From contig CABSFU010000001.1 in NCBI GenBank assembly GCA_902477075.1, positions 15,881 to 79,880 of the forward strand: DNA of 64,000 nucleotides, in the 5' to 3' direction. The position numbers and the translations under genes were made by a program. Position 1 is the stretch's first letter. Each line of letters begins with the position of its first letter. The notes below the pieces were generated by a model. The model was not told the origin of the DNA. It worked only from the letters and a program-made list of their open reading frames with translations, and made no database searches. Positions 4,325 to 29,384 of this stretch are shown here, one piece after another. The DNA is from an uncultured Bacillales bacterium (GTDB lineage: Bacteria > Bacillota_I > Bacilli_A > RF39 > UBA660).

Positions 4325-4537
4325 TTAAATTAAAGTAGTTTCTAGTTCGATTACATTTTTTGCTTGTAATCCTTTATCAGTTTTAACTAAGTCAAATTGA
4401 ATTTTTTGACCTTCAACTAAAGTTTTGTATCCTTCTGTTCTGATAGATGAATAATGTACAAATATGTCTTCTTTATCATTATATTCAATGAATCCAAACC
4501 CTTTTTCGTTGTTAAACCATTTTACCTTACCTATCAC
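4325..4537 (-). CDS. cold-shock protein (CspA family), GTG start
   Basis: [15 protein letters not shown] and FVHYSSI match the RNP1 and RNP2 motifs. The SD GAGGTG lies 5 nt upstream of the GTG. Confidence 0.93.
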
Positions 4538-4661: not shown

Positions 4662-5399
4662 TTACATTATTTTTTGATATTCACATAATTTTTCTTTTAA
4701 TTCTTTTTTCTTATCTCTAGCAATTAAATCTGTTTCTTTGTTTTCAAACTTAATTTTATTATTGGTTATATCATAACTTTTAACATTTAATAAATTAATA
4801 ATACAACTTCTATGTACTTTCATAAATCTAGGATCTTCCATTAAAAACTTTGTAATATGATTAATACAACCTTTTATTGTAATACTATCTTCTTTTGTTT
4901 CTATTGTTACATAGTTTTCATTTACATTTTTTTCAATATACAATATGGAATCATATAGTACTTGAAAAATTTCACCTTTTTGCTTAACGCTTATAGTTTT
5001 ATATGAGGAAAGAATACTATAAGCTGTCATTAAAGCAGACTTCAAATTACTTTTAATATTTTGATTTTTTGAAATAAAATCTAACATTAACATTTTACCA
5101 GTTAAATTATCTGACTTAAGTTCTTGGTAAGATGTAATAATAATCAGTGGACTTGTCCAATCTCCTAATTCTCTTATTTTTCTAGCTAAATCTAATCCCG
5201 ATTTTCCAGGAACATCAATATCCAATAAGAATACCTTTTTTCCTTCTATTCTCTTAATTTGTTTTAATGTTGTATTTGTGTATCTATCAAATTCTACGAT
5301 TTTATAATTTTGATCCTTATTACCAAAGAAATTGTGAATTACATCTTTATACATACTCCGGATTTGTTCTGCATCTTCATATAAGATAAAATTTACCAC
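4662..5399 (-). CDS. AgrA-like response regulator, receiver plus LytTR DNA-binding domain (second copy)
   Basis: The receiver reads FLLDIDVPGKSGLDLARKIRE...IIITSYQEL...MLDFISK, and the LytTR domain reads FMKVHRSCIINLLNV. A GTG start lies 4 nt after the stop of the upstream csp, so the two are probably coupled. Confidence 0.85.
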   Translation of the reverse strand: MVNFILYEDAEQIRSMYKDVIHNFFGNKDQNYKIVEFDRYTNTTLKQIKRIEGKKVFLLDIDVPGKSGLDLARKIRELGDWTSPLIIITSYQELKSDNLTGKMLMLDFISKNQNIKSNLKSALMTAYSILSSYKTISVKQKGEIFQVLYDSILYIEKNVNENYVTIETKEDSITIKGCINHITKFLMEDPRFMKVHRSCIINLLNVKSYDITNNKIKFENKETDLIARDKKKELKEKLCEYQKIM

Positions 5400-5403
5400 A
5401 AAA

Positions 5404-5619
5404 TCACTTGCTTTCTATTTTACTTAAACTTTTGACATTTGCCGCTCTTAAGCCTTTGTCTGTTTGACGTAATTCAAAGGATACTTCTTCATCTTGAACT
5501 AAAGTCTTATAATTTGTATCTAAAATACTACTATAGTGAACAAAGACTTCTTTGTTTTCCCATTTTATAAAACCATATCCCTTTTCATTATTAAACCAAA
5601 TGACTTTTCCTTCAAACAT
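5404..5619 (-). CDS. cold-shock protein (CspA family)
   Basis: GKVIWFNNEKGYGFI and FVHYSSI. GGAAGGAGG lies upstream. Confidence 0.93.
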   Translation of the reverse strand: MFEGKVIWFNNEKGYGFIKWENKEVFVHYSSILDTNYKTLVQDEEVSFELRQTDKGLRAANVKSLSKIESK

Positions 5620-5672: not shown

Positions 5673-5701
5673 TATATCTTTCATTTAGCTTGAACAGTCA
5701 A
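5673..5701 (-). promoter_or_regulatory. putative sigma-A promoter of the csp/agrA-like operon (TTGACT-17-GATATA)
   Basis: Reverse strand: TTGACT (5696-5701), a 17-nt spacer, then GATATA (5673-5678). It lies about 55 nt upstream of the csp ATG. Confidence 0.45.
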
Positions 5702-5723
5702 TTTTTGTACATAAACCGTCATT
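5693..5723 (+). promoter_or_regulatory. candidate LytTR/AgrA operator: two 9-10 bp direct repeats with 21-bp periodicity
   Basis: AACAGTCAAT (5693-5702) and AACCGTCATT (5714-5723). Each resembles the AgrA-type half-site [TA][AC][CA]GTTN[AG][TG], at 8/9 and 7/9 matches. They sit in the divergent intergenic region between the csp/agrA-like operon and agrB. Confidence 0.4.
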
Positions 5724-5840
5724 TAGTTAAGTAATCTTATATGGTAATTTTTATTTAAAATAATTTCAAAAACAGATAAAAGTTAAAATTAATTTTTATT
5801 CTTTTTTTGTTGTATTCTTTAATTGTCAAAAGGAGTTTTA

Positions 5841-6449
5841 ATGAAACAGTTATTTTTAAATTATTCTATGGAAAGTATTAAAAAAAATTATCCAAATTAT
5901 GATGATCAAACACTTGAAGAAATTCGATATGGATTAGAGGGAATTTATCTATCATTAACAAAATTAGTTGTGATTTCTATACTATCCATCATTTTGAATA
6001 TTTTTTATGAAATGTTAATTATGTTGATATGTTTTAATATATTACGAACTACAGGTTTTGGATTACATGCTAAAAAAAGTATACAATGTTGGATTTCATC
6101 CACTATTATGTTTATTTTTTTACCACTTATTTCTAAATACTTTGTTATATCCAAAGTAGTACACATTATATTCAGTATTTTATTATTGTTACTTATTCTT
6201 TTATATGCACCAGCTGATACATATAAAAGACCATTAATTAAAAAGAAAAAAAGAGTTATTTATAAAATCATAACTACTATTAATACTTTAATCTTAATTA
6301 TTATTTCGTTTTATACAAAAAGTACTATTACGAATTTGATATTGTTTGGAATTTTAATGGAAGTAATATTAACAAATCCGATTACTTATAAAATATTCCA
6401 TTTACCATATCAAAACTATAAAACTTATGGTTTAAACAGGCATGTTTAA
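5841..6449 (+). CDS. agrB: AgrB-family autoinducing-peptide processing endopeptidase
   Basis: RTTGFGLHAKKSIQCWISS has the same catalytic His-x6-Cys spacing as staphylococcal AgrB (HAPSSFWC). LYAPADTYKRPL matches the AgrB YAPAATKKKPI block. The protein is polytopic membrane. AAAGGAG lies 5 nt before the ATG at 5841; the track's TTG at 5823 is unlikely. Confidence 0.9.
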   Translation: MKQLFLNYSMESIKKNYPNYDDQTLEEIRYGLEGIYLSLTKLVVISILSIILNIFYEMLIMLICFNILRTTGFGLHAKKSIQCWISSTIMFIFLPLISKYFVISKVVHIIFSILLLLLILLYAPADTYKRPLIKKKKRVIYKIITTINTLILIIISFYTKSTITNLILFGILMEVILTNPITYKIFHLPYQNYKTYGLNRHV

Positions 6450-6470
6450 ATATAATTTAGAAGGAGGTAT

Positions 6471-6602
6471 ATGAATATGACTAAATTATTTGCTGCTATT
6501 TTAGGATTAATTGGAGGAATTGGAGCTGTTGCTGGTTCTACTGCTTGTATTTCTTTCTTTATAGACGAACCAGAATGTCCAAAAAGTATGATTGAAAAGT
6601 AA
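6471..6602 (+). CDS. agrD: AgrD-like cyclic autoinducing-peptide precursor (43 aa; alternative start 6477)
   Basis: Too short for the ORF track. AAGGAGG is at 6461-6467. The translation is MNMTKLFAAILGLIGGIGAVAGSTACISFFIDEPECPKSMIEK. It has an amphipathic leader, a Cys-X4 core (CISFF) and an acidic tail with an E-P-x-x-P-K motif, directly downstream of agrB. Confidence 0.85.
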   Translation: MNMTKLFAAILGLIGGIGAVAGSTACISFFIDEPECPKSMIEK

Positions 6603-6615
6603 TGATTAACAGCTA

Positions 6616-6648
6616 AAAATGATATGAGCTTCATATCATTTTCTTTTT
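6616..6648. terminator. bidirectional terminator between convergent agrBD and agrCA-like operons
   Basis: A perfect 12-bp stem AAAATGATATGA / TCATATCATTTT has a 3-nt loop. A T-run follows on the plus strand and an A-run precedes it. It overlaps the kinase stop codon. Confidence 0.75.
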
Positions 6649-7949
6649 GGTTTAATAATCAACTTCTGAACATAATATTGGTCTACAATCACTCTTTCAT
6701 CTGTTAATTCCTCATGTTTTGATAATAAATCTTTAACCAATGGTAATCCATATCCTCTATTTTTGCCTTTACTACTATACCCTTCATTATCTAGCTTACT
6801 TTCTTCGATTTTTCCTTTAAAGGTATTGCCTAGACAAAAAACTATATTTTTATTCTCTAAATAAAATTGAATTTCTATAGTTTTTTCTTCTGATATACTC
6901 GCAGCTTCTATCGCATTATCTAAATATACTCCAATAATCCTACTAATATCTTGAGCATCTTCTTCATAAGTTTTCCACAATGATTTTTTCTTCAAATCTT
7001 CTGATACTTCTAAATATACATTTAACTTTTTATTCATCATTTCATTTAATTTAAAATAAAGTAATCCTTTTAACCCACCATATGGAATATAAGTTAATTT
7101 CGTTAGCCACTTAATATCATTTTTCTTTTCATCACTTTTTAAAATTCTATTAATATACTCTACAGCATTGTCTTCGCCTTCTTCTATCATACTTCGAATC
7201 ATTATTAATTGATTTTCATATTCATGCTGTCTTTTACTTCTCTTTACTAATTCTTGTTCATATGTTTTGGAATATTCATGTAATTGGTCATATTTGGAAA
7301 TCAAGCTATCATTATTAGATTTTTCTACAAAAAATCCAATTATAAAAATATATACACCTATAAAAAATAAATTAATTAATATGACATAAGATAGTGGTCC
7401 TTCATTATAGCCATTATTATAAGCAATAAAAGTTACAATAGATAAACTTAATATTAAAAAGAAAGATAACAAAATTTTTCTATTTTCATTAATATTTGAA
7501 ACGATGTTACCAAATATATCCTTGAATTTTTTCAAATTAGATATAAACAAGGCTATTAACATTATTTGAAAATTGCCAATTAATATTCCTATAATACCAT
7601 TATTAAAAAATTTAATATCAAATCCTCCTACCTGAACAAATAATATTCCAAAAATAACTTCACTGATAGATATCGTAATAAATGCAATAAATAATCCAAT
7701 TAACGTTTTACCCCAAGACTCTTTATAATAAATTTTAAAAACAATTAAATAAATCAAATGAGATATAAATGGTTTCAATGCTGTAGTATTATAATAAAAA
7801 TTTATTGATAAAAATATAGCAAAAAATAAGCTTAAAATGATTAATTTTTTTGTTATATAAAAATCTTTTTTTAAAGCTGTTTTACAAAATAAATAACAAT
7901 TTAACAAAATATAAATAACTCCAACAATATACAAACTAAACATTAACAT
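6636..7949 (-). CDS. AgrC-like (HPK10) membrane sensor histidine kinase
   Basis: The N-terminal roughly 200 aa are polytopic membrane. The H-box RQHEYENQL matches the AgrC type KHDYxN. The GHKL ATPase end reads YLDNAIEA...NRGYGLPLVKDLL. It overlaps the upstream regulator gene by 14 nt. Confidence 0.85.
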   Translation of the reverse strand: MLMFSLYIVGVIYILLNCYLFCKTALKKDFYITKKLIILSLFFAIFLSINFYYNTTALKPFISHLIYLIVFKIYYKESWGKTLIGLFIAFITISISEVIFGILFVQVGGFDIKFFNNGIIGILIGNFQIMLIALFISNLKKFKDIFGNIVSNINENRKILLSFFLILSLSIVTFIAYNNGYNEGPLSYVILINLFFIGVYIFIIGFFVEKSNNDSLISKYDQLHEYSKTYEQELVKRSKRQHEYENQLIMIRSMIEEGEDNAVEYINRILKSDEKKNDIKWLTKLTYIPYGGLKGLLYFKLNEMMNKKLNVYLEVSEDLKKKSLWKTYEEDAQDISRIIGVYLDNAIEAASISEEKTIEIQFYLENKNIVFCLGNTFKGKIEESKLDNEGYSSKGKNRGYGLPLVKDLLSKHEELTDERVIVDQYYVQKLIIKPKRK

Positions 7950-8655
7950 AATTTTTCAATCCCTTTTTTCTTTCTCTTGCTAGCAAATCAATCTTATAAC
8001 CATTGTTAAAAATAATAATGCCATTAGACCAATCTACATGTTCAATATAATTAATATTTACAACGCAACTACGATGGGTAAGATAAAAGTTATCATCTAA
8101 TTTTTCTAAAATATCACTTAAAGTACAATGAATATAATATATTTCATTTTTTGTCACAACCTTACATTTTCTATCCAATGGTTCTTTTACTACATAAATG
8201 ATGCTAGAAATATCAATACGATAGCTTGTTCCTTTATTGTTATAATAAATGAAGTTTTTATTATTAGATTGATCAATAATCTTTTGAATTAATCCTTCTA
8301 ATTGTAATTTGTAATTATCAAACTTAGAAATAAAATCTAAAACCATTGCTTGAGCTTTTAAAACTTCATAGCCCATTTCTCCATGAGAAGTGATCATGAT
8401 GATAAAACTGTTCCAGTCGTGTTCCCTTATTTTTCTTGCAATATCAATACCAGAAATACTATTCTTCATTTCAATATCCAGAATATAGATTTTATTTTCC
8501 TGATGATCTTTAATAATTTTATCCAAATCATTATTATAACCAGAAAAAATTGTTGTACTATATTCTAAATTATTATTCATAAAAGTGCTGTCTATAATTT
8601 TAACAATTCTTTTTGAAAACATAACTTCATCGTCACAAACTATAAATCTATACAT
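7936..8655 (-). CDS. AgrA-like response regulator (receiver plus LytTR)
   Basis: MYRFIVCDDE...YILDIEM...IIMITSHGEM...VLDFISK, with LytTR THRSCVVNINYI. Confidence 0.88.
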   Translation of the reverse strand: MYRFIVCDDEVMFSKRIVKIIDSTFMNNNLEYSTTIFSGYNNDLDKIIKDHQENKIYILDIEMKNSISGIDIARKIREHDWNSFIIMITSHGEMGYEVLKAQAMVLDFISKFDNYKLQLEGLIQKIIDQSNNKNFIYYNNKGTSYRIDISSIIYVVKEPLDRKCKVVTKNEIYYIHCTLSDILEKLDDNFYLTHRSCVVNINYIEHVDWSNGIIIFNNGYKIDLLARERKKGLKNYVNV

Positions 8656-8750: not shown

Positions 8751-8792
8751 GGAAAAATAAAAAGAAAAGATAGTTATATTTTGTAACTATCT
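8751..8792 (-). terminator. rho-independent terminator of the AbiEi-like gene
   Basis: A 9-bp stem AGATAGTTA / TAACTATCT overlaps the TAG stop. It is followed by a CTTTTCTTTTTATTTTT tract on the minus strand. Confidence 0.65.
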
Positions 8793-9329
8793 ATATACTT
8801 CATTTTCAATACGATACATAATCATCGGATCTTTAAAAAATTGTACATATCTTCCTATCTTATTTTTATTAAGTAATCTTACTATTTTTTTATATCCAAG
8901 AATAATTTTAGAATACAAATTAAAGTCCATATTTTTTTTATTTCTTACTACTTCAATTAACAATCTTTCTAAATCATAAATTTGAATACCAAATCCTAAA
9001 TATTTTACATGATTCAATCCAATAGGATATAATTCATCCATCATGAAAATTTGTTTTACATTTTCATCTTTTATTTTTCTATCTTTTTGCTTTGTAACGA
9101 TATAATAAGGTAATCTGTTTTCCTCTATCAAACCATAACAGAAACAAGCTGTTTGAAGAGTAAACACAATATTAGGATGTTTTTTTGATAAATATTCCAA
9201 ATAATGAAAGGAAGGAGTTGTACTATATACACCTTTTTGAATCATAAATAATTCTTCATTTTGAACCATTTTTTTAATATTAAAATCATTTTTCCCTAAT
9301 TTCGTTAAATCCTTGTATAAATAGATCAT
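8787..9329 (-). CDS. hypothetical protein, AbiEi-antitoxin-like (wHTH) architecture
   Basis: The N-terminal pattern DLTKLGKNDFNIKKMVQNEELFMIQKGVYS, followed by PNIVFTLQTACFCYGLIE, resembles AbiEi-type N-terminal domains. No nucleotidyltransferase partner is adjacent. Confidence 0.4.
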   Translation of the reverse strand: MIYLYKDLTKLGKNDFNIKKMVQNEELFMIQKGVYSTTPSFHYLEYLSKKHPNIVFTLQTACFCYGLIEENRLPYYIVTKQKDRKIKDENVKQIFMMDELYPIGLNHVKYLGFGIQIYDLERLLIEVVRNKKNMDFNLYSKIILGYKKIVRLLNKNKIGRYVQFFKDPMIMYRIENEVYR

Positions 9330-15999: not shown

Positions 16000-17061
16000 T
16001 TAACCTACAACTTCTAAAAGAATTCTTGTATATATGGATGTTGTCAATTTCATTGAATTATATAAATAATAGTTTAATTGATACTCCGTATCTGGTTTTA
16101 CTTCAAATATATCTACAATACTAGACTGTGTCCAAGTAGTTGCTGCAGGAGCATATACAATTGACGCCTCTGAAGGGCCAAATTTATAATTATATTGTCC
16201 TGGTGATGATGGATAACTTTGATAGGTTGCTGTTATTTTAACATATGAAACAGATGGATCAAAACTAACTGTACCATTGCTATTATATATTATTTTATTT
16301 CCCTTTTTATAAAGTAAAACAAGAGGAATTTTTTGATAAGAATTTACCACTGAATATTCTTTTCCATCTATTCTTAATAGCATATAATTTTCTTTTAGAG
16401 ACACCAAACTAGATAAATTTTCTATGTTTGTATTTGTTTTATCTAATTCGCTTTGTAAAGCATAGTTATTTAAATTACTTTGTAATTCTTCGATATTACT
16501 TTTGATACTTGTTATTTCATTTGTATTATTTGTTATTTTTGTATCTAATTCTGTAACCTTTGCATCTACTAAGTTATTTACTTCATCTTTAGAATATACA
16601 TTACTAACATTTCCTGTTCCATTATCTAACATTGCTACATATTTATTTGTTAAAGCATCAAATCCTATGATACAATTTCCAGTTTTTCTTTCTCCTACGA
16701 TAATTCCACTATTATAGTTTTTATATACATAATATTTATCATTTGAGATACAAACACTGACATTTCCTTCTTTATCTAAATAGAGTTTTCCTTCTCCATC
16801 TATGGTTCCTCTATAATCTAGACTTTCTCCTTTTATGGTACTTCCTTTGTGTTCCTTATCAAATAAAAATTCATAGACTCCATCATTTTCTATCGCATAC
16901 AAATTTGCGGATTCTACTAGTCCCTCTACACTAGACGCAAGTGCTTTCTTTTTACTTTCTTCTATTACATTTGTTATCATTGGTATTGTGATTAAGGTAA
17001 TTACTGATAATATAACAATTACAGCTAATAATTCTATTAATGTAAATCCTTTTTTCTTCAT
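16000..17061 (-). CDS. prepilin-type N-terminal cleavage/methylation protein with a long coiled-coil and beta-rich C-terminal extension
   Basis: MKKKG/FTLIELLAVIVILSV is a class III signal with Glu at +5. A pilin-like globular part of about 150 aa is followed by VYSKDEVNNLVDAKVTELDTKITNNTNEITSIKSNIEELQSNL and a beta-rich module of about 130 aa. GGAGG precedes the ATG at 17061. Confidence 0.8.
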   Translation of the reverse strand: MKKKGFTLIELLAVIVILSVITLITIPMITNVIEESKKKALASSVEGLVESANLYAIENDGVYEFLFDKEHKGSTIKGESLDYRGTIDGEGKLYLDKEGNVSVCISNDKYYVYKNYNSGIIVGERKTGNCIIGFDALTNKYVAMLDNGTGNVSNVYSKDEVNNLVDAKVTELDTKITNNTNEITSIKSNIEELQSNLNNYALQSELDKTNTNIENLSSLVSLKENYMLLRIDGKEYSVVNSYQKIPLVLLYKKGNKIIYNSNGTVSFDPSVSYVKITATYQSYPSSPGQYNYKFGPSEASIVYAPAATTWTQSSIVDIFEVKPDTEYQLNYYLYNSMKLTTSIYTRILLEVVG

Positions 17062-17142
17062 AAAGCCTCCTGTTTGTAACTGTATGGTTACTTTATACAA
17101 TAATATTATAACTAAATGGTTACAATGTCAATAGGTGATTTT

Positions 17143-17876: not shown

Positions 17877-18637
17877 ACTTCTATTACATCCGTTCTTTCC
17901 GTTTGACTAGAAATTAATATATTATTAAAAGAAACATTTTTATTATGTAATTCATCTTTTAAAGTCTTTAAAGCTAAAGAAGGATCATTATTATCATGAC
18001 TTAAATGAATTAAAACAACTGTTTTTGTATCATTTCCTATAAACTTAGACAAATAAAAAGATGAGTCTACATTAGATAAATGACCCTTATCTCCCAAAAT
18101 TCTCTGTTTAATTTGATATGGATAGTGTCCATTCATTAACATTTTTACATCATGATTACTTTCCATAATATATAAATTTTTATTTTGAAGTAGAGAATGA
18201 TTCTTTTGGTTAATATATCCTGTATCAGTAATATAAACAATACTTCTATGATTACTTTCAATAATATATCCATTAGAGTCGCTAGCATCGTGAGAAGTTT
18301 TAAAAACAGTCAAATGAATATCTTTAATATCAAATTCATTTTCAATAATTTGATACTTAAAATCAGGAATAATGGGTATTAAATCATGTAACATTTTTTG
18401 AGTTAAATAAATAGTAGGATGATACTTTTTTATAAATACTCTAAGTCCATTTATGTGGTCTATATGGGTATGTGTCAAAATGATACCCTCTATTAATTTT
18501 GGATCTACATTCATACTTTTTAATTGTTTTTCCACATATAAACTAGTTGTACCTAAATCTACTAAAATATTGGCATTAGCAGAGGCAATATAGGTACTAT
18601 TGCCTTTACTTCCCGTCGCTAATACACAAGCTATCAT
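17873..18637 (-). CDS. yycJ: MBL-fold metallo-hydrolase, YycJ/WalJ-like
   Basis: MIACVLATGSKGNSTYI and THTHIDH (HxHxDH). It lies immediately upstream of rlmH, as in Bacillus. The likely start at 18637 overlaps the upstream stop. Confidence 0.85.
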   Translation of the reverse strand: MIACVLATGSKGNSTYIASANANILVDLGTTSLYVEKQLKSMNVDPKLIEGIILTHTHIDHINGLRVFIKKYHPTIYLTQKMLHDLIPIIPDFKYQIIENEFDIKDIHLTVFKTSHDASDSNGYIIESNHRSIVYITDTGYINQKNHSLLQNKNLYIMESNHDVKMLMNGHYPYQIKQRILGDKGHLSNVDSSFYLSKFIGNDTKTVVLIHLSHDNNDPSLALKTLKDELHNKNVSFNNILISSQTERTDVIEV

Positions 18638-20100
18638 GAATACATTCTCCAAGGATTGATACGGGTACCACCCATCCATGGTTTTCCATTTATCCATACC
18701 TCAAAATGAACATGTGTACCAGTTGCCCATCCGGAATGTCCCATAAATCCTATAACATCACCACGTTCTACTACTTGACCTACTTTTACATTTTGTTTTG
18801 ACATATGAGCATAACAAGTATAATAACCATTGTTGTGGTTTATGCAAACATAATTACCATCTTGTGTTCTAGAAGAAACTTCTGAAACTACACCATTTGT
18901 TACGGCATAAATATTAGAGCCATATCCGGTTCCCGCAATATCCAAAGCTTGGTGAATTTCACGATAACCAGATACTGGATTAATACGATAAGTCCAACCT
19001 GATGTGATAGTCCATCCACTGTTGGTTGGCCATAACCAGTTTTTTGTATCTCCTACACCACTTACTTCTTTTTCACCTTTTAATATGATTTCATCGATTG
19101 CTGGTTGTAATTCTTCTTTTGAAATAGCTTCAATAGCTTCTGTTACACCATTTACCACTTTTACTCTCTGACTAACCCTCTCTAATCCATTTGTACCAGA
19201 TTGTAGTTTTTGTTCATAATATTGATTCTTTGTAGAATCATATTGATATTCTGTTTGATATTTAATTTCCTTATCTTCTACAACATACTCTTCTACTGCA
19301 ACTGATATTTGTGGATTCATAATTCCAATTGTTACTATTTGACCTGGAAATAATAAGTTCTTACTATTTGTAAAATTGGGATTGGATATTAAAAATTCTT
19401 CTACACTGATTTCATTATTAAATGCTACCTCTTCAATCGTATCTCCTATTTTTACTTTATATGTTTTTTGGGCTTCTGTTGTACCAAACAATAAATATTT
19501 AGACAATTCTGCTTCTGACAAATAAATATCTTCATCTACTGCTATATTTGTTTTTTTAACAGTAATATTTTCTTCTACATAAATATCTTCAATAATACTT
19601 CCTGTTGTTGTAATAGCTTGTTGAGTCTTTTCTTGATAAGCCTCATAATTCTCTTGTCCAACTAATGTTTCAATAATGTTGTTAATTGCATTTTTAAATG
19701 TTTCTTCTTTTAAAGTATAAATAGTAATTGTTTTATCATCTGATTTAATATTAAATTCATATCCACTAATAGTAAATGGTTCTCTTTCTAATATTTTTTG
19801 ATATACTTCTTCAATAGAATCAATATCTTTTGAATAAGTAGATACTTTTTTTACTTCCAAACCATTTGGAGAATATACTTTATCTACTCCATATTCTTCT
19901 TTGTATTTTGTATTTTGAGTATCTATATAGTTTTCTAGTTTTTCTTTTGATTCGATGGTACCAATTACTTCATCATTTAAATATACTTTATAAAGAATAA
20001 TAGCCTTTATTCCACTGGTATAATGAAAACCAAATAAACCAATTATAATAACACTAAAAATTAGTATTACAATAGATTTCCAATTTTTCAAATTAATCAC
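18634..20100 (-). CDS. membrane-anchored M23 (LytM) peptidoglycan endopeptidase with LysM-like and G5-like segments
   Basis: The C-terminus reads HQALDIAG...GNYVCINHNNGYYTCYAHMS...GHSGWATGTHVHFEV. There is an N-terminal TM helix. It overlaps dnaB by 8 nt. Confidence 0.88.
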   Translation of the reverse strand: MINLKNWKSIVILIFSVIIIGLFGFHYTSGIKAIILYKVYLNDEVIGTIESKEKLENYIDTQNTKYKEEYGVDKVYSPNGLEVKKVSTYSKDIDSIEEVYQKILEREPFTISGYEFNIKSDDKTITIYTLKEETFKNAINNIIETLVGQENYEAYQEKTQQAITTTGSIIEDIYVEENITVKKTNIAVDEDIYLSEAELSKYLLFGTTEAQKTYKVKIGDTIEEVAFNNEISVEEFLISNPNFTNSKNLLFPGQIVTIGIMNPQISVAVEEYVVEDKEIKYQTEYQYDSTKNQYYEQKLQSGTNGLERVSQRVKVVNGVTEAIEAISKEELQPAIDEIILKGEKEVSGVGDTKNWLWPTNSGWTITSGWTYRINPVSGYREIHQALDIAGTGYGSNIYAVTNGVVSEVSSRTQDGNYVCINHNNGYYTCYAHMSKQNVKVGQVVERGDVIGFMGHSGWATGTHVHFEVWINGKPWMGGTRINPWRMYS

Positions 20101-27575: not shown

Positions 27576-29384
27576 TTAATCAATGTGTTCTTTTATTGTT
27601 TCAAGAAGATTATTTTTATTGACTGGCATGAATATTACATCTTTATAACCTTTTTCTTGATATCTTTCTTTCATACCAAATCCTTTATTATTGGATATTA
27701 ATATTACTGGTATTTTATAGCCAGGGGTATCCTTTATTTTTAGCATTGTATCTTCGCTACTTAATCTTTCTAAATTTTCTTCCATTAATATAATATTATA
27801 TTTTTCTTTGTTTCTTAATCTTTCTAAGCAAGGTTGTCCACCATTTACTTCTACAATATCATAAGGTGATTTTTTTAAAAAATAATTAATTTTTTTACTT
27901 AATTCAGCAGAATTTATAACCAATAAGATTTTTTTATTTTGCTTTAACATTTTTTCATATTGATCTACTTTTTCTTCTATTTCTGTTTTATTTTCTGTTT
28001 TAATAATTTGATCTACTGCTATAGTGAATTTTGTTCCTACACCCAATTCACTTTTAACTGTTATACTTCCATTCATCAAATCTATTAATGATTTGGCTAT
28101 TCCTAAATTATTTTTTGTATCATCCACAATTTTTAATTTTTTATCACTATATATTTTTTCTTTGTCAAATAAATGCTCCAATTCAGTGCTTTCTATACCA
28201 GAGCCAGAATCTTCTACAGTGATTATTAATCGGCAAATATCATTTTTAATGATAGAATTAACATTTAATTCTATAAATCCTTTTTCTGTATATTCCCTTG
28301 AATTTTCTAAAATTATATTGAGTATTTGCTTAATTCTAATAGAATCTCCATATAAATATTCCGGAATACTTTTATCATAGTTGAATCGATATTTTACATT
28401 AGAATTGATTGTTTTTTCAAATGATTTACTTATCATATAAAACATACTATAAGTATTATATTTATTTTTTTTGATACTTATTTTTTGCTTTTCAATTTCG
28501 GTTATATCTAATATATTGCTGACTAATTGACTTAATGAACCTATCGAATTTTGGACTTTTCTTATTTCATTTTTTAATTCTTCGGGATCATCACTATTAA
28601 GTGCTTCACTCGTTATCGTTTTGATATTCGCAATTGGCGTTGTAAGATCTTTGGATATGTTAACTAAAAATTCATTTTTAGATGCATTACTTTCTTCTTC
28701 CTTTTCTTTCATTTTATGAAATTCATTTAACATTTTTAAATCTGGATTTTCGATTGTAAAATACATAATCATATCAATATATACCATTATAGCTGGTATA
28801 ACAATTAATGTAGGAGATAAACTTCTTAAATAGATAGCTAATACCATAAATACAATCAAAGTAACATAAGGAATACATTTTTTTAATTTAACGAATTTTA
28901 AATTTTTTAGTACAACTATGAAAATGGCTAGAAAATAAATGGTCGCAATTGCTAAAACAAAATTAGTTGCCGTACCAGCTACTCCCATAGCACCATTATC
29001 GTTAATAATATCTATTGGTAATAAAAATTCAATTATTATGAAGATTACGTCCAAAACCATACATAGATTACGAAGAGTTATATATTTTTTTTCATCTTTA
29101 TATGTAATATAAAACATATATAAAAATAATAAAGTAGGCCATAAAACGTAATAAATCATATCAATTTTATTTAGTATTCTTAACAACCCATATGGAATAC
29201 TATTAAAATCCATATATCCAAATGATACTTCTAATATTACTAATAATACATCAATACAACTTGCTACAATCATTACTCCATAAATTTTTGTTTCAATTGA
29301 ATTAATTTTCTTCTTACAAAAAAAGACAATCATAAGTAAAATAATACAAAGCAATCCACAGATTGAAAAATACTGATTTGTCAT
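27576..29384 (-). CDS. hybrid sensor kinase homologue with degenerate phospho-acceptor sites (pseudo-kinase, pseudo-receiver)
   Basis: About 7 TM helices. The HisKA-like box reads EFLVNISKDLTTPI, where the consensus is FLAxMSHELRTPL, so His is replaced by Lys. HATPase motifs are retained (ENSREYT, DSGSGI, GVGTKFT). The C-terminal receiver-like domain has LVINS for VDD, LMEEN for LMD, and FMPV for KP. Confidence 0.8.
   Translation of the reverse strand: MTNQYFSICGLLCIILLMIVFFCKKKINSIETKIYGVMIVASCIDVLLVILEVSFGYMDFNSIPYGLLRILNKIDMIYYVLWPTLLFLYMFYITYKDEKKYITLRNLCMVLDVIFIIIEFLLPIDIINDNGAMGVAGTATNFVLAIATIYFLAIFIVVLKNLKFVKLKKCIPYVTLIVFMVLAIYLRSLSPTLIVIPAIMVYIDMIMYFTIENPDLKMLNEFHKMKEKEEESNASKNEFLVNISKDLTTPIANIKTITSEALNSDDPEELKNEIRKVQNSIGSLSQLVSNILDITEIEKQKISIKKNKYNTYSMFYMISKSFEKTINSNVKYRFNYDKSIPEYLYGDSIRIKQILNIILENSREYTEKGFIELNVNSIIKNDICRLIITVEDSGSGIESTELEHLFDKEKIYSDKKLKIVDDTKNNLGIAKSLIDLMNGSITVKSELGVGTKFTIAVDQIIKTENKTEIEEKVDQYEKMLKQNKKILLVINSAELSKKINYFLKKSPYDIVEVNGGQPCLERLRNKEKYNIILMEENLERLSSEDTMLKIKDTPGYKIPVILISNNKGFGMKERYQEKGYKDVIFMPVNKNNLLETIKEHID

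Follow-up and report, generated by a model that had tools for sequence, protein, structure and literature searches.

A complete agr-type peptide quorum-sensing locus with matched signal and receptor variants in an uncultured gut bacterium

Analysis of a 64-kb window (the whole stretch of 64,000 nucleotides that was analyzed) from an uncultured gut bacterium revealed, judged by sequence, a genuine and complete agr-type peptide quorum-sensing locus. Agr is a textbook peptide quorum-sensing circuit, with the knowledge mostly stemming from staphylococci, listeriae, and cultured clostridia. All four agr functions (agrB, agrD, agrC, and agrA) were recovered within the window by profile searches (Table 1), in line with the first-pass annotation, which had proposed the full set; the assignment is carried by Pfam/NCBIfam profile matches, conservation, and the tripartite layout of AgrD. 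We consider it likely that a functional agr-type AIP system operating by the feedback mechanism proposed below is present in this species, apparently an RF39-like member of the gut Bacilli, which carries the NCBI label 'Mycoplasmatota/Tenericutes bacterium'. This kind of system is already well known; what is specific here, according to the sequence data, is the presence of at least seven matched signal/receptor variants in one species.

Table 1. Features of the agr locus and their positions in the window
Feature	Position	Strand	Description
Predicted LytTR operator for AgrA in the agrBD promoter	5693..5724	+	Two direct half-sites
agrB	5841..6449	+	202 aa, ATG 5841, stop 6449; predicted polytopic membrane cysteine peptidase/cyclase processing AgrD
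agrD	6471..6602 (ATG 6471, 43 aa) or 6477..6602 (ATG 6477, 41 aa)	+	AIP precursor; leader ends at Ala25
Predicted AIP core Cys26-Ile31 (CISFFI)	6546..6563	+	Six-residue thiolactone macrocycle (inferred); hypervariable segment
AgrD C-terminal recognition tail DEPECPKSMIEK	6564..6599	+	Predicted to be cut off by AgrB
Bidirectional intrinsic-terminator-like hairpin	6616..6642	.	12-bp perfect stem, A-tract 5', T-tract 3'
agrC, whole	6636..7949	-	Contains RQHEYENQL
agrC cytoplasmic histidine-kinase module	6636..7328	-	DHp with His242 in RQHEYENQL, plus GHKL ATPase
agrC N-terminal sensor	7329..7949	-	Approximately aa 1-207, six hydrophobic segments; predicted AIP-binding module, peak of allelic divergence
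agrA	7936..8655	-	LytTR-family response regulator, 239 aa; first in agrAC, overlaps agrC by 14 nt

The genes are organized in two convergent units, agrBD on the plus and agrAC on the minus strand. Of the previously proposed order "BD><CA", the convergence and the hairpin between the units were retained, but the order within the second unit had to be corrected: agrA is transcribed ahead of agrC, and the unit is therefore named agrAC. The convergent arrangement was kept in all 64 related species loci reaching both agrC and agrA. The perfect 12-bp hairpin between agrD and agrC, likewise proposed earlier, is formed by the inverted repeat AAAATGATATGA / TCATATCATTTT (6616-6627 / 6631-6642) and overlaps the final agrC codons. 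It folds better than shuffled sequences on both strands (z of -3.6 and -3.0), and most related loci carry a hairpin at the equivalent position after agrD (61 of 87 with z < -2), the stem sequences being species-specific. A consensus terminator scan did not pick up the hairpin of the window, because its A+T-rich stem has only two G-C pairs.

AgrB was matched by Pfam PF04647 (9.3e-34; cut-off 23 bits) and by NF002210 (6e-36). It contains GFGLHAKKSIQCW, in which the postulated His-x6-Cys spacing was found as His76-x6-Cys83, as well as LYAPADTYKRP. The YAPA block noted at first pass is hence present, its actual form being YAPA-D-T-x-x-x-P and thus longer by one residue than written. Arg69, Gly74, His76, and Cys83 are invariant in an alignment of 18 AgrB sequences with identities down to 53% and represent candidate catalytic residues; the S. 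aureus counterparts are R70, G75, H77, and C84 (PMC10196373). The Arg and Gly required in the AgrB family plus the catalytic His and Cys are all kept.

Downstream of agrB, the proposed short ORF was found in sequence and position as described, with a 21-nt spacer between the agrB stop and ATG 6471 and the Shine-Dalgarno sequence GAAGGAGG at 6460-6467; the translation of 6471-6602 is exactly MNMTKLFAAILGLIGGIGAVAGSTACISFFIDEPECPKSMIEK. Its description as an untracked gene of 43 codons did not hold. Translation probably starts at ATG 6477, giving a 41-aa product, because the Shine-Dalgarno sequence then lies at a distance of 9 nt (3 nt for ATG 6471) and the AgrD homologues of sister species start with M-x-K/N-L-F. 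In public assemblies, the agrD ORF is called as a gene in both the 41-aa and the 43-aa version. An antisense ORF (6446-6634, minus strand, 62 aa), dismissed earlier as spurious, does exist; it had no family match in the profile search, and its frame is open across agrD in just 37 of 73 related species.

The identity of the short ORF as an AgrD-family precursor is supported by profile score, conservation, and tripartite layout. The peptide scored 24.2 bits against PF05931 (cut-off 22.7) and 23.4 bits against TIGR04223 (cut-off 19), and, located beside agrB, it combines an amphipathic leader, a Cys core, and an acidic C-terminal tail. Two checks suggested together with the first-pass annotation thereby turned out in favor of an AgrD-family precursor: the Pfam AgrB and AgrD families and TIGR04223 all matched above their cut-offs, and an AgrD-like ORF of this layout follows agrB in 73 of the 80 related species genomes. 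Alternatively, the ORF might have arisen by chance or encode another small membrane or bacteriocin-like peptide, with kinase and regulator sensing something else; the peptide is indeed very hydrophobic and exceeds the profile cut-offs only modestly. Considering that the ORF retains its position, frame, and motif behind agrB in those 73 species, stands beside AgrC-/AgrA-type genes in 64 of 64 loci, and co-varies with the AgrC sensor, and that no bacteriocin transport or immunity genes adjoin the locus, we regard this explanation as hardly credible.

With regard to the signal itself, CISFF had been assigned as the ring and IDEPECPK as the tail. Comparison with related precursors argues for a different division. 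The pattern C-x5-(D/E)-E-P fits all 73 related AgrD peptides, each with a Cys-to-D distance of 6, one more than the 5 of S. aureus (C28 to M32|D33), which points to a six-residue ring; the canonical five-residue arrangement, i.e., Cys and four residues followed by the D/E motif, was found in none of them. The AgrB of S. aureus cuts M32|D33, and D33 and E34 adjoining the cut are essential for cleavage (PMC10196373). Since this cut lies directly before D-E, the homologous cut would be I31|D32 and would release the six-residue ring CISFFI. Across 71 species, positions +1 to +5 are hypervariable (2.5-3.0 bits), with +5 (2.72 bits) as variable as the four before it, the following D, E, and P are invariant with an entropy of approximately zero, and P-K-S is strongly conserved. 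Within the species, the alleles CISFFI and CISFFF differ solely at +5, yet their sensors are only 67% identical, and the alleles ending in FFI and FFF constitute separate sensor groups; among these few and phylogenetically non-independent alleles, the AgrC sensor changes together with residue +5. We conclude that the ring is probably CISFFI and not CISFF.

A canonical five-residue thiolactone CISFF, with AgrB cutting F30|I31 and Ile31 as first residue of the tail, would belong to the by far commonest AIP type (PMC10301443, PMC8905530). The AgrD models of Pfam and TIGRFAM, which derive mostly from five-ring peptides, match as well. The variability of +5 next to three invariant residues, the sensor divergence between alleles differing there, and the essential D-E located one residue farther from Cys than in S. 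aureus nevertheless make this ring unlikely. Six-membered AIPs are a known minority variant, documented for C. acetobutylicum (PMC10301443) as well as for R. cellulolyticum (PMC8251862). Slightly more weight may be given to a tail-less cyclic hexapeptide lactam as the mature signal, resulting from leader cleavage just before Cys26 and a spontaneous S-to-N acyl shift, as Rc-AIP1 of Ruminiclostridium cellulolyticum, also a six-residue Cys-first ring, rearranges in this way (PMC8251862). GSTA, the four residues preceding Cys, is constant across the alleles of the species, placing all specificity in the ring, compatible with a signal lacking an exocyclic tail; at position -1, 66 of 71 species have one of the small residues Ala and Gly. 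The conservation before Cys would, however, equally fit a conserved exocyclic tail, and no leader protease was identified in this analysis, leaving the lactam a doubtful candidate beside the thiolactone CISFFI. Neither the ring nor the second Cys in the tail is specific to this locus, as had been assumed: a peptide identical to the AgrD of the window is also found on other contigs, and every allele of the species has the tail Cys, which also occurs in 30 of 71 related species, the others having Met or Ala.

The convergent unit contains the predicted receptor and regulator genes, both confirmed by domain matches at the positions indicated in the first-pass annotation. AgrC shows the composition of an AgrC-type (HPK10) kinase with polytopic N-terminal sensor, DHp histidine, and GHKL domain (HATPase_c_5, 7.7e-12). 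Its kinase module can be aligned to that of S. aureus AgrC (6e52; 2.5e-12), which places His242 against the H of RKFRHDYVNIL. AgrA, an AgrA-type response regulator with LytTR DNA-binding domain (Response_reg 2.5e-9, LytTR 8.1e-17), aligns full-length to ComE 4cbv (1.4e-16) and had NF046049 AgrA as best NCBIfam match (1.8e-17). With scores far below the equivalog cut-offs (64 bits versus 400 for AgrA; 70 bits versus 500 for AgrC against the staphylococcal model NF046015), both are family members and not orthologue-level matches to the staphylococcal proteins.

Upstream of agrB, two half-sites, AACAGTCAATT (5693-5703) and AACCGTCATTT (5714-5724), form a predicted LytTR operator with a start-to-start distance of 21 bp. 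On sequence evidence, these are paired 9-bp LytTR sites approximately 12 bp apart in front of the signal genes, an architecture (9 bp + 12 bp) shared with S. aureus agrP2 (PMC10482373). The predicted operator is unique within the 64-kb window (0.02 matches expected). Of 80 species loci, 33 have a 21-bp spacing in front of agrB, an enrichment over shuffled sequences (mean 5.1) and over any other spacing (2-11 loci each). Measured from the agrB ATG, the position of the predicted operator has an SD of 11 nt, compared with 41 nt when measured from the divergent csp gene, showing that it is positioned relative to agrB and not to csp. A promoter scan between operator and agrB did not yield a good sigma-70 site, and promoter-like matches were not enriched in the region (44 found, 50 expected from shuffles). 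A LytTR-type operator was found in front of agrBD only, with agrAC having none.

Combining these findings, we propose the following circuit. Transcription of agrBD would start from a promoter bearing the two-half-site operator, as suggested by its sequence and comparative enrichment. AgrB would use His76/Cys83 to release the AgrD tail, the invariant DEPECPKSMIEK, and to close a ring between the thiol of Cys26 and the newly formed C-terminus, most probably yielding, by homology to the S. aureus cleavage site, the six-residue thiolactone CISFFI; a protease would take off the leader. Based on domain homology, the exported peptide would bind the polytopic sensor of AgrC, leading to autophosphorylation at His242 and phosphate transfer to AgrA. 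Phosphorylated AgrA would then bind the operator and raise agrBD expression. Feedback would thus act on signal production only; agrAC forms a convergent unit of its own that lacks an operator of this kind and would end at the common bidirectional hairpin.

At least seven AgrD ring alleles were detected within the species (CISFFI, CVMFFI, CVAFFI, CVAFFV, CISFFF, CVAFFF, and CIMIFF). Ring type and sensor correspond in each of the six for which agrC is full-length; for the remaining one, CVAFFV (L096), agrC is available only in part and groups with CVAFFI. AgrC sensor identity is 97-100% within and 49-90% between ring types. Flanking genes share 97-100% amino-acid identity and AgrC 74-92%. Nucleotide diversity is approximately 0.003 in flanks and agrB (at most 0.02 in agrB) and 0.2-0.31 in the agrC sensor. 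dS is 0.09-1.16 in agrC. In agrB, alleles in the same background have a dS of only 0.008-0.024 and a dN not exceeding 0.008, so that the hypervariable region does not include part of AgrB. The agrD core and agrC rather constitute a hypervariable cassette of approximately 1.5 kb between near-identical agrB and agrA. The AgrD alleles differ in the core alone, except for small changes in leader and tail, and L095 and L096 combine the same AgrB allele with different agrD alleles, their partial agrC genes differing in C-terminal identity to the window. Between divergent genomic backgrounds, the CIMIFF sensor retains 87% identity.

On sequence level, this resembles the staphylococcal agr specificity groups, with a hypervariable AIP core and AgrC sensor in matched alleles within one species. 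We interpret the ring/sensor alleles as pherotypes, in which strains would hear their own signal only. Sensor omega values of 0.19-0.66 are two to eight times those of the kinase half; as they never exceed 1, positive selection is not demonstrated. Omega below 1 throughout, a dS raised in the kinase half too, and the origin of the contigs from mixed communities would also suit a diversity of agrD and agrC without signaling specificity, due to relaxed constraint, hitchhiking, interspecies recombination, or assembly chimerism, with all alleles activating each other. We consider this improbable, given that independent samples and assemblies yielded the same alleles again (97-100% identity), that divergence ends sharply at the agrB/agrD and agrC/agrA junctions, and that AgrD changes are almost confined to the ring, with leader and tail fixed. 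Moreover, ring type predicts sensor type even in divergent backgrounds, the sensor exceeds the kinase half in omega, and the signature is the same as that of the S. aureus agr groups (PMC10482373).

Taking the pherotype interpretation further, one gut species would maintain at least seven mutually exclusive hexacyclic-AIP dialects on an exchangeable agrD-agrC cassette, with agrB and agrA as possible recombination arms. A dS of up to approximately 1 versus approximately 0.01 would make the alleles far older than the clonal frame of the species, and at least one of them would be common to diverged lineages. We put this forward tentatively, as falling somewhat short of even chances. If true, long-term balancing selection would be implied, acting for kin discrimination or for interference between signals in a gut commensal of reduced genome size, with the convergent layout keeping signal and receptor genes adjacent.

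Among characterized systems, S. aureus agrBDCA (specificity groups I-IV) shares the four protein families, the AgrB catalytic residues, and D-E after the ring (PMC10482373, PMC10196373). Also common to both are the two-half-site LytTR operator with 21-bp period, which drives autoinduction in S. aureus, and an intraspecific hypervariable region pairing AIP and AgrC-sensor alleles (PMC10482373). The staphylococcal architecture of a single agrBDCA operon (RNAII) plus divergent RNAIII is, in contrast, replaced in the window by the two convergent units, with the operator before agrBD only; an Rfam scan of the window gave no family at gathering score, and an RNAIII-type effector was not found. Further differences are the Cys-to-D spacing (6 here, 5 there), the position of AgrB outside the variable block (dS 0.008-0.024; inside in S. 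aureus), and the extent of the variable cassette, taking in the whole agrC here and only its 5' half in S. aureus.

In Clostridium acetobutylicum, agrBD and the two-component genes are likewise separate units without RNAIII, and its AIPs (R6T0 peptide) are predicted or used as six-membered rings, like the ring inferred here (PMC10301443). Its genes, however, read as co-directional from the placement of CA_C0082 directly downstream of agrCA, follow the order agrC then agrA, and are linked to a LanM-like effector, which the window locus does not have; pherotype polymorphism is not reported in that study (PMC10301443). The R. cellulolyticum signal Rc-AIP1 (cAIP) is similar in its six-residue Cys-first hydrophobic/aromatic core (C+WFWSY) made by AgrB/AgrD (PMC8251862). 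Its mature form is a homodetic lactam by experiment, whereas the window signal is predicted from sequence, and R. cellulolyticum has four agrBD pairs with the signal controlling sporulation, compared with one locus in the window from a reduced-genome gut lineage (PMC8251862). In Clostridioides difficile agr2 (agrACDB), agrA is also ahead of agrC, the reverse of S. aureus (PMC3754575); its four genes appear as a single transcript, whereas the two pairs described here converge on a common hairpin. The available text of surveys of AIP/agr families mined from human gut metagenomes likewise covers uncultured Bacillota with AgrB, a small precursor, and a two-component system; within-species signal/receptor allele sets and the C-x5-DEP rule are not described in that part of these sources (PMC11953309; bioRxiv 10.1101/494179).

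The understanding of how agr works is unchanged by these data. They define a uniform agr subtype across a clade of uncultured small-genome gut Bacilli (RF39-like, often labelled Tenericutes), marked by the convergence agrBD><agrAC, by precursors of the C-x5-DEP type, and by a predicted operator limited to agrBD, with staphylococcus-like signal/receptor polymorphism in at least one human-gut species of this clade. This yields synthesizable peptide predictions (six-residue rings plus five-residue alternatives) and a natural allele series for studies on AIP-AgrC specificity and strain-level gut competition. Correct annotation of these short genes can be aided by the C-x5-(D/E)-E-P rule together with the start that gives 41 aa. 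As a side observation, agrA is frameshifted in one locus (L004), indicating that the agr system can be lost.

The locus is a genuine agr system of an already known type, and every feature of the first-pass annotation was recovered from the ORF list and the raw sequence. AgrB matched the Pfam family PF04647 (9.3e-34) in a profile search, and the short peptide scored above both curated AgrD thresholds, with 24.2 bits for PF05931 (threshold 22.7) and 23.4 bits for TIGR04223 (threshold 19). The agrC product carries an AgrC-type GHKL domain (HATPase_c_5), its top NCBIfam match being staphylococcal AgrC, and its kinase module is alignable to the S. aureus AgrC structure 6e52, with His242 (RQHEYENQL) facing the H of RKFRHDYVNIL. 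The agrA product combines receiver and LytTR domains, has AgrA as top NCBIfam match and aligns over its full length to the LytTR regulator ComE. A PDB sequence search with AgrB as query found no solved relative; its residues R69, G74, H76, and C83, invariant in an alignment reaching down to 53% identity, are the counterparts of R70, G75, H77, and C84, which S. aureus AgrB needs for activity (PMC10196373). An Rfam scan of the entire 64-kb window at gathering thresholds returned zero families, thus no RNAIII-like or other known RNA; the scanned span includes short same-strand ORFs at ~33-45 kb, taken as a cluster of ribosomal-protein genes, in which leader elements could have been anticipated.

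Features of the agr locus and of other genes discussed (window positions)
Feature	Position	Strand	Remarks
Cold-shock-protein gene	4325-4537	-	
Orphan LytTR response regulator gene	4662-5399	-	245 aa, or 230 aa with alternative start
Cold-shock-protein gene	5404-5619	-	divergent to agrB
Predicted LytTR operator	5693-5724		AACAGTCAATT + AACCGTCATTT, 21 bp apart, ~150 nt upstream of agrB
agrB	5841-6449	+	202 aa; contains GFGLHAKKSIQCW and LYAPADTYKRP (ORF list, raw sequence)
Antisense ORF	6446-6634		
Shine-Dalgarno sequence	6460-6467	+	GAAGGAGG
agrD short ORF	6471-6602	+	product MNMTKLFAAILGLIGGIGAVAGSTACISFFIDEPECPKSMIEK
Perfect 12-bp inverted repeat	6616-6627 / 6631-6642		
agrC (kinase gene)	6636-7949	-	437 aa
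agrA (regulator gene)	7936-8655	-	239 aa
180-aa ORF	8787-9329	-	directly upstream of agrA
Prepilin-like protein gene	16000-17100	-	N-terminal prepilin methylation motif
M23 peptidase gene	18634-20100	-	LysM + G5 domains
Hybrid histidine kinase/receiver gene	27576-29384	-	602 aa; HisKA + HATPase_c + Response_reg

On the minus strand, agrA precedes agrC with an overlap of 14 nt, and the convergent unit is named agrAC because transcription reaches agrA first. The precursor gene had been described as untracked and 43 codons long. Public assemblies already call it, as a gene of either 41 or 43 aa, and the likely start is the ATG at 6477, giving 41 aa, since the Shine-Dalgarno sequence is 9 nt away from this codon, and the AgrD peptides of sister species begin with M-x-K/N-L-F. 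The dismissal of the antisense ORF as spurious was borne out, since it lacks a family match and an antisense frame is open across agrD in just 37 of 73 related species.

Of more interest, although secondary, is a signal/receptor cassette that occurs in multiple alleles in this uncultured species of the human gut. Look-ups of AgrD variants (loci L001-L014) and of two divergent AgrB variants (L095-L098) provided 18 further loci, 14 from the species of the window and four from more divergent backgrounds. The flanking proteins (HPF, two cold-shock proteins, the orphan LytTR regulator, AgrA, the 180-aa ORF, and a P-type ATPase) are 97-100% identical, compared with 95-99% for AgrB, 86-95% for AgrD, and 74-92% for AgrC. 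Resolved in a sliding window, nucleotide diversity is ~0.003 for the flanks and does not exceed 0.02 in agrB, rises to 0.06-0.11 in agrD and 0.02-0.11 in the kinase half of agrC, peaks at 0.2-0.31 across 7371-7900, which encodes the AgrC membrane sensor, and is back to 0.003 just beyond the agrA/agrC junction. Seven ring alleles were found (CISFFI, CVMFFI, CVAFFI, CVAFFV, CISFFF, CVAFFF, and CIMIFF). Within a ring type AgrC is 97-100% identical, while between types the sensor shares 49-90% and the kinase half 92-98% identity. Synonymous divergence (dS) amounts to 0.09-1.16 in agrC versus 0.008-0.024 in the adjacent agrB, and omega of the sensor (0.19-0.66) is several-fold above that of the kinase (0.04-0.16). 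The sensors cluster by the residue at +5, the fifth position after the core Cys: those of the FFI-ending alleles are 76-86% mutually identical and those of the two alleles ending in FFF 90%, and CISFFI and CISFFF, differing solely at +5, are paired with sensors of 67% identity.

At the sequence level, this pattern is the signature of the staphylococcal agr specificity groups (PMC10482373). In contrast to these groups, AgrB here lies outside the variable block, and the whole agrD-agrC segment forms a single contiguous cassette flanked by conserved agrB and agrA, a contiguity that results from the convergence of agrBD and agrAC. Two of the divergent loci (L095 and L096) share an identical AgrB allele (92% to the window) yet differ in agrD, encoding CIMIFF and CVAFFV, respectively, which fits a swap of the agrD-agrC cassette through recombination in the conserved genes on either side, agrB and agrA. 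The CIMIFF sensor of a lineage with only ~88-92% nucleotide identity in its flanks is 87% identical to the one found in the background of the window.

One locus of the same species (L004, CISFFF; positions 7460-8180 of that locus) has a 1-nt insertion ~106 nt into agrA, and an early stop codon cuts the product down to 177 aa; this product (P0045) is recorded on four contigs in NCBI and ENA. Natural agrA-null variants are common in S. aureus, and L004 could represent such a variant or a homopolymer assembly error.

The ring itself had been annotated as the five residues CISFF. S. aureus AgrB cuts AgrD by Cys84 at M32/D33, yielding the ring C28-M32, with D33 and E34 being essential (PMC10196373). 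The invariant D-E pair lies one residue farther from the Cys here than in S. aureus AgrD, which would place the homologous cut at I31|D32 and predicts the macrocycle CISFFI. Position +5 matches +1 to +4 in variability and co-varies with the AgrC receptor, and we therefore infer, with a fair degree of confidence, a six-residue ring rather than CISFF. Such rings have precedents: six-membered AIPs were predicted for C. acetobutylicum and its relatives, with R6T0 as the synthetic peptide in use (PMC10301443), and the Cys+WFWSY ring of R. cellulolyticum was experimentally characterized, its thiolactone rearranging to a lactam (PMC8251862). An analogous rearrangement here would depend on the leader-cleavage site. 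Neither the ring nor the second Cys in the tail turned out to be specific to this locus, as had been proposed: the CISFFI peptide also occurs on other contigs, and the tail Cys is invariant within the species and shared by 30 of 71 related species, 26 others having Met and 13 Ala.

Extension of the analysis to species-representative genomes gave 80 loci, which did not include the window's own species (best AgrB match 75% identical). The short ORF proved conserved, with an AgrD-like ORF behind agrB in 73 loci; no candidate was detected in the other seven, several of whose contigs stop at or just past agrB. Each of the 73 peptides conforms to Cys-x5-(D/E)-E-P-x-(C/M/A)-P-K-S. The entropy is 2.5-3.0 bits at each of +1 to +5, where nearly all residues are hydrophobic or aromatic, and drops to 0-0.2 bits for D, E, and P. 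The convergent agrBD><agrAC arrangement was found in 64/64 loci reaching both agrC and agrA. A consensus terminator scan missed the hairpin at 6616-6642, as it demands at least three G-C pairs; the hairpin was evaluated instead by folding and comparative conservation. In most species a hairpin flanked by A- and T-tracts follows agrD, its position being kept and its stem sequence species-specific. The cold-shock-protein gene divergent to agrB is present in 77/80 species and hpf lies near agr in 63/80, a conserved chromosomal neighborhood that suggests vertical inheritance across the clade and not a mobile island.

Large-scale surveys of AIP and agr families in gut metagenomes have been published (PMC11953309; bioRxiv 10.1101/494179), and split agr operons as well as six-membered rings are known (PMC10301443, PMC8251862). 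The searchable literature yielded no account of agr or quorum sensing for RF39 or for environmental Tenericutes.

The predicted operator pair upstream of agrB occurs once in the window, against a chance expectation of 0.02 matches. In 33/80 species loci, agrB is preceded by a direct repeat of a 10-mer with a spacing of exactly 21 bp, other spacings from 12 to 33 bp occurring in 2-11 loci each (shuffle mean 5.1); half-sites vary by species and commonly share a GTC-type core. The predicted architecture matches the paired sites of S. aureus agrP2, two 9-bp sites with 12 bp between them (PMC10482373). An assignment to the divergent cold-shock gene was rejected, as the spacing from that gene scales with the length of the intergenic region (SD 41 nt, r = 0.96), whereas the spacing from the agrB start hardly varies (SD 11 nt). 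Upstream of agrA, no repeat spacing was enriched among the 80 loci, and autoinduction of agrAC was dropped; with enrichment confined to agrB, the predicted positive feedback would act on signal production (agrBD) only. A sigma-70 scan gave 44 matches versus 50 expected in A+T-rich DNA and no convincing agrBD promoter.

AgrB, AgrD, AgrC, AgrA, and the orphan LytTR regulator (5/5 looked up) are all present in public assemblies. AgrB has >1000 relatives, every match listed having a MAG or assembly source, and the 80 loci derive from MAGs of uncultured "Bacilli/Tenericutes" in the guts of humans, mice, rabbits, ruminants, and chickens. Among them is Candidatus Coprosoma intestinipullorum, GTDB genus CAG-822 of the order RF39 (PMC8035907). 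RF39 genomes are reduced and related to Mycoplasmatales, with peptidoglycan predicted to be kept in most species (PMC10868615). One member of the AgrB cluster bears the annotation [quoted passage not shown]. The Mycoplasmatota label might have pointed to a host without a cell wall, in which agr would have been remarkable. This reading was rejected given the prediction for most RF39 (PMC10868615) and the wall-related genes in the window, namely a MurA/AroA-family enzyme and the M23/LysM/G5 hydrolase, which argues for a peptidoglycan wall.

The orphan LytTR regulator, whose gene is flanked by the two cold-shock-protein genes just upstream of agrB, shares ~31-36% identity with AgrA. Its conservation within the species is 99-100%, and of the 80 species loci only those of the two sister species (L015 and L016) contain it. 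As no cognate kinase is adjacent, it may act as a second AgrC output or as a competitor at LytTR sites. The 180-aa ORF has no Pfam match and only a weak, sub-threshold NCBIfam match (CotS); homologues of 52-71% identity occupy the same position in 18/80 species, all nearer relatives, making an accessory or effector gene of the agr system possible. In four loci (L005, L006, L012, and L014), a ~600-aa hybrid kinase similar to that of the window lies a few kb upstream of agr, just past hpf, a position occupied by SecA in the window; this region is thus rearranged between strains. The window additionally encodes a type IV pilin or competence-pilin-like protein.
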